Sequence record: MZ189261.1
DNA length: 64,000 nucleotides
Direction: 5' to 3' (one strand)
Source of the DNA: Escherichia phage S143_2
Every line of letters starts with the position of its first letter. The stretch's first letter is position 1. Positions 42,193 through 43,024 of the stretch are shown piece by piece. A program made the translations under genes and the position numbers. The notes under the pieces are model-generated. The model searched no databases and was not told the DNA's origin. It saw only the letters and a program-made list of their open reading frames with translations.

Positions 42193-42269
42193 TGGTCGAG
42201 ACAGAAGGATTCTAACCTTCAACCTACGGATTAGAAGTCCGTTGCTCTATACAATTGAGCTATGCCTCG
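42193..42269 (-). tRNA. tRNA-Arg (anticodon UCU)
   Basis: 77-nt cloverleaf by manual folding; anticodon loop CUUCUAA; T-loop TTAGAAT; encoded CCA. Confidence 0.8.
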
Positions 42270-42273
42270 TATT

Positions 42274-42348
42274 TGGCGGACGTGATAGGATTCGAACCTA
42301 TAACCAATCGCTTAACAGGCGATCGCTCTGCCATTGAGCTACACATCC
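42274..42348 (-). tRNA. tRNA-Asn (anticodon GUU)
   Basis: 75-nt cloverleaf; anticodon stem ATCGC/GCGAT, loop CUGUUAA; T-arm GGTTCGAATCC; encoded CCA. Confidence 0.8.
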
Positions 42349-42352
42349 AAAT

Positions 42353-42439
42353 TGGTGGGGAGTGATGGAGTCGAACCACCCGAGTCGCAATGACAATGGA
42401 TTTACAGTCCACACCGCTACCTCTACGGGATAACTCCCC
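42353..42439 (-). tRNA. tRNA-Tyr (anticodon GUA)
   Basis: 87 nt with long variable arm; anticodon loop CUGUAAA; acceptor GGGGAGT/ACTCCCC; encoded CCA. Confidence 0.75.
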
Positions 42440-42451
42440 TAATTCATAATT

Positions 42452-42526
42452 TGGTGGCCCTGGGTGGAATTGAACCACCATCTGGCGATTATGAGTCGCT
42501 TGCTTGAACCTTCCAGCTACAGGGCC
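42452..42526 (-). tRNA. tRNA with CAU anticodon (Met or Ile2)
   Basis: 75-nt cloverleaf; anticodon loop CUCAUAA; position after Thr corresponds to T4 tRNA-Ile. Confidence 0.75.
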
Positions 42527-42527
42527 T

Positions 42528-42604
42528 TGGTGCTGATTGACGGAATCGAACCGCCGACCTTCTCATTACAAGTGAGTTGCTCTACCTACTGAGCTAAATC
42601 AGCA
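42528..42604 (-). tRNA. tRNA-Thr (anticodon UGU)
   Basis: 77-nt cloverleaf; anticodon loop CUUGUAA; T-arm GGTTCGATTCC. Confidence 0.8.
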
Positions 42605-42608
42605 AAAC

Positions 42609-42698
42609 TGGCGGAGGCGATAGGATTTGAACCTATGAGTCGCCGGAGCGACTGCCGGTTTTCAAGACCGGTGCATTAAACCACTCTGCCACGCCTCC
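42609..42698 (-). tRNA. tRNA-Ser (anticodon UGA)
   Basis: 90 nt with long variable arm; anticodon loop CUUGAAA; acceptor GGAGGCG/CGCCTCC. Confidence 0.8.
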
Positions 42699-42700
42699 AG

Positions 42701-42774
42701 TCTCCATACAAGGATTTGAACCTTGGGCCTCCTGATCCCAAATCAGGCGCTCTACCAAACTGAGCTACACGGAG
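42701..42774 (-). tRNA. tRNA-Pro (anticodon UGG)
   Basis: 74 nt; anticodon loop UUUGGGA; T-arm GGTTCAAATCC; CCA not encoded. Confidence 0.75.
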
Positions 42775-42784
42775 TAAATTAAAT

Positions 42785-42858
42785 TGGAGCGGATAATGAG
42801 AATCGAACTCACATCATCAGATTGGAAGTCTGAGGTAATGCCATTATACGATATCCGC
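42785..42858 (-). tRNA. tRNA-Gly (anticodon UCC)
   Basis: 74 nt; anticodon loop CUUCCAA; matches recalled T4 tRNA-Gly. Confidence 0.8.
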
Positions 42859-42863
42859 AAATT

Positions 42864-42950
42864 TGGTGCGAGAAGTGGGACTCGAACCCACAAGGAAATC
42901 ATTCCGCAGCATTTTAAGTGCTGTGCCTTTACCAATTTGGCCATTCTCGC
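42864..42950 (-). tRNA. tRNA-Leu (anticodon UAA)
   Basis: 87 nt with long variable arm; anticodon loop CUUAAAA. Confidence 0.8.
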
Positions 42951-42951
42951 G

Positions 42952-43024
42952 CTGGGAATAAAGGACTCGAACCTTTGCATCCTGGAATCAAAATCCAGTG
43001 CCTTACCAACTTGGCTAATTCCCA
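42952..43024 (-). tRNA. tRNA-Gln (anticodon UUG)
   Basis: 73 nt; anticodon loop UUUUGAU; T-arm GGTTCGAGTCC; CCA not encoded. Confidence 0.75.

Follow-up and report, generated by a model that had tools for sequence, protein, structure and literature searches.

The ten tRNA genes at positions 42193 to 43024 of the window (the whole 64,000-nucleotide stretch of Escherichia phage S143_2 DNA analyzed here) very probably form the standard, already known tRNA operon of T-even phages lacking segB (T2L/RB-type), kept for the supply of tRNAs matching phage codon demand. Neither tRNA-Tyr nor tRNA-Asn is an addition relative to T4; it is T4 that holds an alternative cassette, consisting of a T4-type tRNA-Ile, segB, and a T4-type tRNA-Arg. 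The window phage is an RB69-like Mosigvirus, 97% identical to ST0 and p000y.

Gene content of the cluster

By ARAGORN, the 64-kb window contains exactly ten tRNA genes, which all lie on the minus strand between 42193 and 43024, and Rfam, which is independent of ARAGORN, scored all ten at or above the RF00005 gathering threshold of 29 bits. Nine score 59.9 to 74.1 bits (E values of 1e-10 to 1e-14), with tRNA-Asn at the top. Both methods give the order Gln, Leu, Gly, Pro, Ser, Thr, CAU, Tyr, Asn, Arg, and the ten genes are genuine.

42951..43024, minus: tRNA-Gln (UUG); ARAGORN; Rfam 67.4 bits; no encoded CCA; 89% identical to T4
42864..42950, minus: tRNA-Leu (UAA), class II; ARAGORN; Rfam 64.0 bits; CCA encoded; 98.9% identical to T4
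42785..42858, minus: tRNA-Gly (UCC); ARAGORN; Rfam 63.3 bits; CCA encoded; 98.6% identical to T4
42700..42774, minus: tRNA-Pro (UGG); ARAGORN; Rfam 66.8 bits; no encoded CCA; 98.7% identical to T4
42609..42698, minus: tRNA-Ser (UGA), class II; ARAGORN; Rfam 62.6 bits; CCA encoded; 96.7% identical to T4
42528..42603, minus: tRNA-Thr (UGU); ARAGORN; Rfam 72.9 bits; CCA encoded; 96.1% identical to T4
42452..42526, minus: CAU tRNA, T2/wV7 allele, not the T4/RB69 allele; ARAGORN; Rfam 59.9 bits
42353..42439, minus: tRNA-Tyr (GUA), class II, long variable arm, atypical D arm; ARAGORN; Rfam 30.2 bits
42274..42348, minus: tRNA-Asn (GUU), discriminator G73; ARAGORN; Rfam 74.1 bits
42193..42269, minus: tRNA-Arg (UCU), RB69/RB51-type allele, U19 and A56; ARAGORN; Rfam 71.1 bits

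An earlier note on this DNA had described a minus-strand cluster of ten tRNAs and had suggested ARAGORN as a check. ARAGORN and Rfam agree with that description down to identical outer coordinates, all ten of the claimed identities and anticodons are correct by ARAGORN, and Tyr and Asn are among the genes called. The spacers, put at 1 to 12 nt in the note, are 0 to 12 nt by the ARAGORN boundaries (0, 5, 10, 1, 5, 1, 12, 4, and 4 nt from Gln to Arg), a near match. CCA is encoded in eight of the ten genes, the exceptions being Gln and Pro. Three mechanically called open reading frames lie wholly over the tRNA genes.

42260-42481, minus: ORF, 73 aa
42765-43025, minus: ORF, 86 aa
42784-43032, plus: ORF, 82 aa

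They look spurious, a view that the note had taken of three overlapping ORFs in its own track: none has a significant PHROG match, and none is annotated in p000y, wV7, T2, or T4. Other Rfam families gave only subthreshold chance matches between 41400 and 43150 (Plastid-ycf2, sX4, and YrlA).

Flanking elements

The cluster shares its strand with the early genes and is situated between the e.x region and a trna.2-like ORF; homologues of trna.2, trna.3, and trna.4 are found upstream, as in T4, wV7, and p000y.

43131..43159, minus: sigma-70-like promoter match TTGACT-17-TATCAT, from a consensus scan; within the terminal part of the trna.2-like ORF
43094..43118, minus: T4 middle-promoter-like element, read from sequence; MotA-box-like TGCTTTA, 12-nt spacer, TATTAT
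43025..43121, minus: leader of 97 nt between the trna.2-like ORF and tRNA-Gln; near-invariant in five T-even phages
41830..42174, minus: conserved phage ORF of 114 aa, RB69ORF150c homologue (phrog_3355, E value of 1.7e-50), between tRNA-Arg and the stable RNAs
41714..41833, minus: rnaD homologue (species 2 stable RNA), full-length identity to T4 rnaD 86.8%
41569..41707, minus: rnaC homologue (species 1 stable RNA), full-length identity to T4 rnaC 97.8%; tRNA-like GGTTCGAACCCCGG element present
41498..41527, minus: intrinsic-terminator-like hairpin AGCCCC...GGGGCU followed by U6, from RNA folding; conserved in wV7 and RB69

The leader is kept despite differences in the coding sequence upstream of it, for example in T2, and the MotA-box-like element within it is invariant in the window, T4, wV7, T2, and p000y. 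The TGCTTTA motif, which we take to resemble the T4 MotA-box consensus, marks a putative promoter. The sigma-70-like match is a weak promoter lead, such matches numbering 4 in the region against 5.0 expected from shuffled sequence.

Downstream, tRNA-Arg is 97.5% identical to its RB69 counterpart, 83% to that of ST0, 80% to those of wV7 and T2, and 57% (57.1%) to that of T4, and it recurs at identities of at least 99% in 119 phage records. The 114-aa ORF beyond it, which has GAGG 5 nt upstream of its ATG, is absent from T4 and belongs to a PHROG family without an assigned function; the four flanking ORFs, this one included, had no Pfam match. The rnaC/rnaD region had no Rfam match. A terminator pattern scan found nothing in this region, and it missed the hairpin because the 12-nt loop exceeds the 8-nt limit of the scan. 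As modeled by folding, the hairpin and U-run probably mark the end of the tRNA/stable-RNA unit.

Identity of the CAU tRNA

Recognition by TilS depends on acceptor pairs C4-G69 and C5-G68 and on an ileX-like anticodon arm. These determinants are all present in the CAU tRNA, the acceptor stem of which is GGCCCUG/CAGGGCC and which shares with ileX both the GGCCC/GGGCC acceptor end and the GCGA-CUCAUAA-UCGC anticodon arm. Identity is 76.3% to E. coli ileX and 81.6% to a prophage tRNA-Ile, compared with 66.2% to metT/U and 62.3% to metZ. The gene is therefore most likely a tRNA-Ile2, predicted to decode AUA after lysidine modification. Elongator and initiator tRNA-Met were rejected as identities, given 66% and 62% identity against 76 to 82% to tRNA-Ile(CAU). 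Among phages, the gene is 100% identical to those of T2, wV7, ST0, and p000y, 63% (62.7%) identical to the T4 tRNA-Ile, and 61% identical to its RB69 counterpart.

tRNA-Tyr as a structurally constrained gene

Bacterial tRNA-Tyr is identified by a GUA anticodon, a class II long variable arm, G1-C72, and A73, and the sequence and ARAGORN drawing of the window gene show the GUA anticodon, the long variable arm, G1-C72, and A73. It is nevertheless the weakest of the ten, at 30.2 bits against the RF00005 cutoff of 29. The earlier note had made its description depend on the calls of Tyr and Asn: Asn is clear, with the best score of all, but Tyr nearly failed and is kept as a real tRNA because covariation rescues it. 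Across 11 phage homologues from at least six phage groups, 99.6% of cells are paired and 14 of 23 pairs show compensatory changes; none of 500 shuffles scored as high, and slid controls were 42 to 59% paired. Pairing is complete (100% of cells) in the variable-arm helix GUC/GAC and also in a D stem of the register CCG/CGG, against 63.6% for the canonical register drawn by ARAGORN; the D arm is accordingly not canonical, with four rather than two nucleotides between the acceptor and D stems. Covariation shows that this tRNA-Tyr is structurally constrained and has an atypical D arm.

That the gene is a decaying or nonfunctional pseudogene, leaving a working set of nine tRNAs, is hardly credible. 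The low score, the higher score of the tRNA-Sec model (34.4 bits), the C-C mismatch in the D stem drawn by ARAGORN, and the tag “tRNA-OTHER” on a homologue in one GenBank record all favor it, but it is opposed by the compensatory changes, by the fully paired CCG/CGG register, and by conservation at 97.7 to 100% in ST0, p000y, T2 (98.9%), and wV7. In addition, a T5-family tRNA-Tyr works in vivo (PMC11555353), and the SP15 copy compared here is of the same family as the window gene, being 75% identical and sharing its D-arm and T-arm motifs. An identity as tRNA-Sec was rejected: the anticodon is GUA, the score in a permissive Rfam scan lies below that model's cutoff of 47 bits, and all homologues are Tyr. 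Recent capture of Tyr or Asn from the host was also rejected, with identities of 67% (66.7%) to E. coli tyrU and 62% to asnT; in BLAST against E. coli, Tyr gave no chromosomal match at E values up to 10, and Asn gave no full-length match. The Tyr family circulates in unrelated coliphages and phage-like plasmids.

tRNA-Asn, SegB, and the T4 cassette

The identity elements of tRNA-Asn are the GUU anticodon and discriminator G73. The window gene ends in ...CACGUCC-G-CCA, has the loop CUGUUAA, and is 100% identical to the genes of T2, wV7, ST0, and p000y. A preferred 27-bp SegB site has been mapped within the tRNA-Asn gene of T2L (Brok-Volchanskaya 2008, PMC2330249), and the GGTTCGAATCC...CCAA element is present in the window gene. 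On the assumption that T2L corresponds to the T2 record, the window tRNA-Asn gene is, to judge from its sequence, the counterpart of the T2 gene with the preferred SegB recognition site. SegB recognizes the T-arm of most tRNA genes (PMC2330249), and the SegB core GGTTCRANTCC occurs in eight of the ten genes of the window.

In T4, segB, a 666-bp homing-endonuclease gene, stands in place of Tyr and Asn. The earlier note had rightly placed these two genes between the CAU tRNA and Arg, but what it took for a spacer of about 0.5 kb in T4 is segB. There is no segB in the window, as the spacers of 12, 4, and 4 nt between CAU, Tyr, Asn, and Arg leave no room for an ORF. In a T4 × T2L cross, SegB excludes a segment of about 1,250 bp with ORFs and the tRNA genes for Met(CAU), Tyr, Asn, and Arg (PMC2330249). 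Homology of the window to T4, which extends through tRNA-Thr as the final gene of the shared block, is lost just downstream, from about 42527 to about 41833, which matches the interval excluded in that cross, and exact matches to the published T2L primers for CAU, Tyr, and Asn (PMC2330249) are present in the window. Spread of the T4 cassette by SegB cleavage within the Asn gene of such phages has been shown experimentally (PMC2330249).

Description of the cluster as the T4 set plus two tRNAs does not hold. Only Gln to Thr, six of the eight shared anticodons, are T4 orthologues (89 to 99% identical); the CAU tRNA and Arg are so divergent from their T4 counterparts that the whole CAU-Tyr-Asn-Arg-ORF block is an alternative cassette. 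The note's term “tRNA-enriched” is apt in comparison with T4 and RB69, which have eight and two tRNAs, in line with its own figures (eight and fewer), but not in comparison with p000y (ten), wV7 (eleven), or T2 (nine). The make-up is mosaic, with Gln to Thr being T4-like, CAU-Tyr-Asn T2/wV7-like, and Arg with the ORF RB69-like. Phage records containing the Tyr-Asn block at a query coverage of at least 80% number 436, that of T2 among them, compared with 126 for T4 segB.

Codon demand and predicted operation of the operon

Comparison of phage and host codon usage, which the earlier note had proposed for Tyr and Asn and for late genes, showed that the phage overuses TAT and AAT relative to E. 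coli. By excess over the host, as represented by a small sample (14,016 codons from 35 K-12 genes), AAT ranks 3 (2.0-fold) and TAT 4 (2.2-fold) of 61 codons. Tyr is the most enriched amino acid (1.66-fold), and Asn is enriched 1.44-fold. In the 11 plus-strand ORFs beyond 46 kb, assigned as late structural genes by strand and position, Tyr and Asn account for 49 and 71.5 per 1,000 codons, compared with 27 and 41 in the host sample. The exact cognate codons of the other eight tRNAs rank 9 to 23 of 61. UAC and AAC, which pair exactly with the Tyr and Asn anticodons, are not in excess (ranks 31 and 32), and no phage tRNA matches the two most overused codons, AAA and ATT. The overuse of TAT and AAT fits codon supplementation.

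Expression, processing, charging, and modification of the tRNAs can be proposed by analogy with the T4 tRNA operon. A single polycistronic transcript would probably run from the conserved leader preceding tRNA-Gln to the hairpin and U-run at 41498-41527, and the tRNAs would be excised from it by RNase P and 3′ exonucleases of the host. Gln and Pro, with no encoded CCA, would be completed by the CCA-adding enzyme, TilS would convert the CAU tRNA to AUA-reading tRNA-Ile2, and Tgt would place queuosine in both Tyr and Asn. Once mature, the tRNAs would supplement the host pool for codons that the AT-rich phage favors far beyond E. coli; for Tyr and Asn the codons served would be UAU and AAU, above all in the late structural genes.

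Several observations sit less easily with codon supply. The Tyr and Asn excess lies in U-ending codons, read by G/Q34 wobble; with three tyr and four asn genes in E. coli, host supply of both tRNAs is not obviously limiting; T4 and T2L can do without the region (PMC2330249); and two tRNAs suffice for RB69-type Mosigviruses.

Other explanations for retention of the cluster

Tyr and Asn, with Thr, might instead be kept mainly to replace host tRNAs destroyed by immune nucleases, Tyr making good the losses to retron-Eco7 PtuAB and Asn and Thr replacing tRNAs cleaved by PARIS AriB or resisting that cleavage; we regard this as unlikely. Colicin E5-type nucleases target the four GUN-anticodon tRNAs, and wV7-type clusters carry a third such tRNA, His, in addition to Tyr and Asn. 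Tyr and Asn differ greatly from the host genes, and the Tyr family, to which the SP15 tRNA-Tyr belongs, extends to unrelated coliphages and phage-like plasmids. Retron-Eco7 degrades host tRNA-Tyr, and phage can be rescued from it by a T5-family tRNA-Tyr, but rescue hinged on promoter strength and not on tRNA resistance (PMC11555353). In host tRNA-Lys(UUU), Thr(UGU), and Asn(GUU), the AriB cut falls between positions 40 and 41, within UAAUC/N (the slash marking it), and U39 and N41 substitutions stop cleavage (PMC12409363). At this site the window Asn has UAAGC/G where the host has UAAUC/C, differing at 39 and 41, and the window Thr has UAAUG/A where host thrU has UAAUC/A, differing at 40. However, differences in the stem at 39 to 41 are expected by chance at 62% overall identity, T5 Asn retains UAAUCC, and the cluster is without tRNA-Lys, the main target of AriB. 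Site differences near the cleavage position are, more generally, expected by chance at overall identities of 62 to 84%. The anticodon loops are the same as those of the host (in Tyr the loop is identical and only the stem differs), and nucleases that read the loop would therefore cut both. Anticodon-loop changes, which van den Berg et al. reportedly proposed in 2023, were rejected here, as six of six phage loops compared equal the host cognate loops. The further proposal that Tyr-Asn and the T4-shared Thr allele form a counter-defense module rather than a codon aid, so that homing of segB would cost its carrier immune evasion, is quite improbable. If true, it would place segB, a selfish element, in conflict with an anti-defense locus. 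Tyr, Asn, and Thr are recently shown targets of retron-Eco7 or PARIS, and the T-even variants with 2, 3, 8, 9, 10, and 11 tRNAs offer a ready test panel.

Less probable again is that the extra tRNAs bring no measurable benefit and persist as homing and recombination hot spots, shuffled as cassettes among coinfecting T-even phages. The mosaic cluster, in which ST0 differs almost only in Arg, the coexistence of those six tRNA complements in close relatives, the prevalence of the SegB core and T-arm recognition, and the dispensability of the tRNA region in T4 and T2L (PMC2330249) all accord with such cargo. Against it stand strong purifying and compensatory selection on the tRNAs, the overuse by the phage of all tRNA cognate codons, and the identity of the tRNA block between genera, which is 91 to 100% compared with about 79% reported for the genomes (PMC12656860).

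The preferred reading, a standard operon of segB-less T-even phages kept for codon supply, corrects a T4-centered view: ten or eleven tRNAs are the usual T-even state, and the eight of T4 reflect a homing-endonuclease cassette. Its discovery value is small, since the genes are annotated in near-identical genomes and the sequence and a study of the T2L counterpart date from 2008. For annotation, rnaD and rnaC stable-RNA genes should be added at 41569-41833, three or more ORF calls across 42260-43032 dropped, the CAU gene labeled tRNA-Ile2 and not Met, and tRNA-Tyr retained despite its low covariance-model score.

Comparison with other T-even phages

Among the closest counterparts are other Mosigviruses. 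In p000y (MK047718) the same ten tRNAs are annotated, eight of them 100% identical to those of the window and Tyr and Pro differing by one base each. The Mosigviruses p000y, JK36, ST0, and PhiL share genus, the ten genes, and their order with the window, with flanks 97% identical, and Mosigviruses with 2 or 10 tRNAs have already been published (PMC12656860). ST0 carries a T2/wV7-type Arg, almost its sole difference from the window, and its GenBank record annotates no tRNAs. RB69, the type Mosigvirus, shares the Arg allele, ORF150c, rnaD, and rnaC with the window but has ORF151c in place of Gln to Thr, a T4-type CAU tRNA, and no Tyr or Asn.

Among the other T-even phages, T2L/T2 and RB1/RB3 (AJ880101, AJ884577, and AJ884578; PMC2330249) have no segB and show CAU-Tyr-Asn-Arg followed by an RB69ORF150c-like ORF. 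T2, a Tequatrovirus, differs from the window, a Mosigvirus, in having an ORF in the place of tRNA-Thr, which leaves nine tRNAs, and the other Arg allele (80%). Tequatroviruses of the wV7/RB32 type, with eleven tRNAs, have the same order and 100% identical CAU, Asn, and Thr genes; unlike the window, they have an extra tRNA-His, an Asn-Arg interval of about 115 bp, and the other Arg allele. T4 resembles the window in the position of the cluster between the trna.2 and e.x genes, in the conserved leader, and in rnaD (87%) and rnaC (98%), but in T4 segB replaces Tyr and Asn, the CAU and Arg tRNAs are different, and no ORF lies between Arg and rnaD.

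tRNA gene content and identities

Across the entire 64-kb window, ARAGORN called 10 tRNA genes, each of them on the minus strand. The cluster and its neighbors, in 5′-to-3′ order on that strand, are as follows.

43131-43159, minus strand: sigma-70-like match from a consensus scan
43025-43121, minus strand: 97-nt leader upstream of tRNA-Gln
42193-43024, minus strand: Gln(UUG), Leu(UAA), Gly(UCC), Pro(UGG), Ser(UGA), Thr(UGU), CAU, Tyr(GUA), Asn(GUU), and Arg(UCU) tRNA genes, in this order (ARAGORN)
Downstream of tRNA-Arg, minus strand: conserved 114-aa ORF (phrog_3355), homologue of RB69ORF150c, function not assigned
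41714-41833, minus strand: homologue of the T4 stable RNA rnaD (species 2), 87% identical to T4
41569-41707, minus strand: homologue of the T4 stable RNA rnaC (species 1), 98% identical to T4
41498-41527, minus strand: GC-rich hairpin followed by U6, probable end of the unit
40828-41454: next gene (phrog_2280), Lys/Pro/Ala rich

All 10 genes reached the gathering score of the Rfam tRNA model, nine of them at 60 to 74 bits, with Asn highest (74.1 bits). The minus-strand genes that the earlier note derived by manual folding are borne out by both programs and their identities by ARAGORN, including Tyr and Asn, for which it proposed a check with tRNA predictors, but Tyr lies barely above the cutoff (30.2 versus 29 bits). 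By the ARAGORN boundaries, spacers are 0 to 12 nt; CCA is encoded in all genes except Gln and Pro (8 of 10). Three mechanically predicted ORFs (73, 86, and 82 aa) fall wholly over tRNA genes. Because a PHROG search gave no significant match for these three and they are absent from the annotation of related curated records, the earlier remark that three overlapping ORFs are spurious is reasonable.

The low Rfam score of tRNA-Tyr is due to its atypical D arm. In an alignment of 11 homologues (from the window, p000y, wV7, T2, an rV5-like phage, a Jiaodavirus, a T5-like phage, a FelixO1-like phage, a Certrevirus, a Klebsiella phage, and an E. coli plasmid), 99.6% of the cells of the cloverleaf were paired and 14 of 23 pairs showed compensatory changes; none of 500 shuffles scored as high, and slid controls had 42 to 59% of cells paired. 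Covariation favors a D stem two nucleotides off the canonical register, as the shifted CCG/CGG register was paired in 100% of cells versus 63.6% in the ARAGORN register. The gene also carries G1-C72, A73, and a class II variable arm, which are identity elements of bacterial TyrRS. Given the covariation and pairing across the 11 homologues, it is a constrained tRNA rather than a pseudogene.

The Tyr gene (42353-42439, minus strand) shares only 67% identity with E. coli tyrU, and a BLAST search against E. coli found no chromosomal match. Its identity is 94 to 97% with the tRNA-Tyr of rV5-like phages (97% for FFH2) and of ∼70- to 110-kb phage-like E. coli plasmids (94%), and the family seems confined to mobile elements. 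One such plasmid, on inspection, proved to encode tRNAs for Asn, Thr, and Ser as well, together with a DNA ligase and an integrase; from this gene content, it looks like a phage-plasmid.

tRNA-Asn carries the anticodon GUU, with G as residue 73, and is 62% identical to E. coli asnT. The CAU tRNA, left as Ile2/Met in the earlier note, resembles E. coli ileX (76%) and a lambdoid prophage tRNA-Ile (82%) rather than elongator (66%) or initiator (62%) tRNA-Met, and shares with ileX the GGCCC/GGGCC acceptor end and the GCGA-CUCAUAA-UCGC anticodon arm. It is most likely a tRNA-Ile2, reading AUA after a predicted lysidine modification. Its top E. coli match is the prophage gene (L017, E. coli M19 chromosome, 1501-1576), not chromosomal ileX; that gene adjoins a tRNA-Gly and lies directly downstream of antiterminator gene Q.

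In tRNA-Arg(UCU) (42193-42269, minus strand), the T loop UUAGAAU has A56, where C is near universal in tRNAs, and the D loop AAUUGUAUA has U19. Because these replace C56 and G19, the tertiary 19-56 pair appears to have switched from G-C to U-A; the T2, wV7, and ST0 allele keeps G19 and C56. In the RB69 copy (L003, 10784-10862), the anticodon stem has a 5′ strand with two additional G's (ACGGGGACUUCU versus ACGGACUUCU in the window), and this tRNA may be impaired or the difference may be a sequencing error.

Organization of the probable transcription unit

The leader is almost invariant in T4, T2, wV7, p000y, and the window, although T2 has a different coding sequence upstream of it. Within the leader, a 12-nt spacer separates TGCTTTA, which resembles a MotA box, from TATTAT; by its likeness to the consensus of T4 MotA-dependent middle promoters, the element is a candidate middle promoter. 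Sigma-70-like matches in the region were no commoner than in shuffled sequence. T4 has no ORF between tRNA-Arg and the stable RNAs, whereas the window has the 114-aa ORF there, with the start of the rnaD homologue lying within its stop codon. The rnaC homologue is conserved above most of the surrounding DNA, and no Rfam family covers either stable RNA. Directly after the terminator U run, 35 nt upstream of the next gene's ATG, lies TATAAATA (41490-41497, minus strand), which is the T4 late-promoter consensus. Precursor transcription and maturation by host enzymes are established for the T4 tRNA operon, and by analogy the whole unit probably yields a precursor transcript, which host RNase P, exonucleases, and the CCA-adding enzyme would then process.

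Mosaic composition and segB

The cluster is not, as had been suggested, the T4 set with Tyr and Asn added. Pairwise tRNA identities and a sliding comparison in 100-nt bins revealed a mosaic. The genes from Gln to Thr, the leader, and the trna.2-like ORF upstream are 89 to 99% identical to T4, but homology is lost at the Thr/CAU junction (∼42527) and returns at rnaD (∼41833). The CAU tRNA is 63% identical to T4 tRNA-Ile and 61% identical to that of RB69 but 100% identical to those of T2 and wV7. The Arg gene is 57% identical to that of T4, 80 to 83% to those of T2, wV7, and ST0, and 97.5% to that of RB69, and its allele is found at ≥99% identity in 119 phage records, including RB51. Even ST0, the closest relative overall, is 99 to 100% identical over 42300-43399, against just 83% for the 100-nt bin with the Arg gene. 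By this mosaic pattern of identities, the cluster is an assembly of exchangeable cassettes with breakpoints between tRNA genes.

Where the earlier note placed a ∼0.5-kb T4 spacer at the position of Tyr and Asn, the interval between T4 tRNA-Ile and tRNA-Arg is segB, a 666-bp GIY-YIG homing endonuclease gene. Brok-Volchanskaya et al. determined tRNA region sequences for T2L, RB1, and RB3, which lack segB (PMC2330249). In T4 × T2L coinfection, segB homes into T2L with exclusion of ∼1,250 bp, comprising the tRNA-Met(CAU), Tyr, Asn, and Arg genes plus ORFs, and the preferred 27-bp SegB site falls inside the tRNA-Asn gene of T2L (PMC2330249). The window Asn gene is 100% identical to that of a current T2 record and contains the GGTTCGAATCC...CCAA element, and the window has exact matches to the T2L primers that the study printed for the genes of the CAU, Tyr, and Asn tRNAs. 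S143_2 carries the segB-less allele and therefore, judged from sequence, is predicted to receive segB by homing. The evolutionary reading is thereby corrected: because of segB, it is T4 that represents a derived or alternative state.

Codon demand and possible counter-defense

Codon use was compared between 103 phage ORFs chosen mechanically (18,968 codons) and a small host sample of 35 annotated E. coli K-12 genes (14,016 codons). By phage-minus-host excess, AAT and TAT ranked third and fourth of 61 codons (2.0- and 2.2-fold), and the exact cognate codons of the other eight tRNAs ranked 9th to 23rd; among amino acids, Tyr was the most enriched (1.66-fold), with Asn at 1.44-fold. In presumed late structural genes (11 plus-strand ORFs beyond 46 kb, chosen by strand and position only), where the earlier note proposed such a comparison, use exceeded that of the host sample for both Tyr (49 versus 27 per 1,000 codons) and Asn (71.5 versus 41). 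This fits the classical view that Tyr and Asn would serve codon supplementation. However, the surplus is in U-ending, wobble-read codons, with none for UAC or AAC; AAA and ATT, the two most overused codons, have no phage tRNA; and both T4 and T2L can dispense with the tRNA region (PMC2330249).

Tyr, Asn, and Thr might alternatively be kept against tRNA-targeting immunity, a minority or complementary explanation for which the signs are suggestive but weak. The retron-Eco7 effector PtuAB destroys host tRNA-Tyr, and a T5-family tRNA-Tyr rescues infection (PMC11555353), while AriB of PARIS makes its cut between positions 40 and 41 of host tRNA-Lys(UUU), Thr(UGU), and Asn(GUU), within a UAAUC/N context (slash, cut), and is blocked by changes at positions 39 and 41 (PMC12409363). 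At this anticodon stem site, phage Asn (42274-42348, minus strand) has UAAGC/G versus host UAAUC/C, and phage Thr (42528-42603, minus strand), like T4 Thr, has UAAUG/A versus host UAAUC/A. Stem differences nevertheless arise readily at such divergence, all anticodon loops are the same as those of the host, T5's own Asn retains UAAUCC, and the cluster lacks a tRNA-Lys.

Comparison with related phages

The cluster region is 97% identical to that of the Mosigvirus phages ST0 and p000y, members of the RB69 genus. The p000y GenBank record already annotates the same ten tRNAs, eight of them 100% identical to those of the window and Tyr and Pro each one base apart. The ST0 record (L004, MF044457) annotates no tRNA genes here; ARAGORN calls all ten. 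The earlier statement that T4 encodes eight tRNAs and RB69 fewer was right (RB69 has two), but ten is no enrichment within this group: the count is eleven in wV7, with an additional His, and nine in T2, with a 402-bp ORF (L006, 1764-2165) in the tRNA-Thr position. The Mosigvirus PhAPEC2 (L022, 1125-1358) has three, namely, CAU, an Asn-like "Asx" 82% identical to the window Asn, and Arg. A 186-bp query across Asn and Tyr matched 436 phage records at ≥80% coverage, versus only 126 for T4 segB. Mosigviruses with either two or ten tRNAs were reported in 2025 (PMC12656860).

The original observation and tRNA identities are thus confirmed, while its interpretation was only partly right; the practical yield is a set of annotation corrections and the revised view of T4 versus the segB-less state. 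What the window shows is a known and previously annotated feature, a Mosigvirus copy of the T-even tRNA operon in its segB-less T2/RB-type form.
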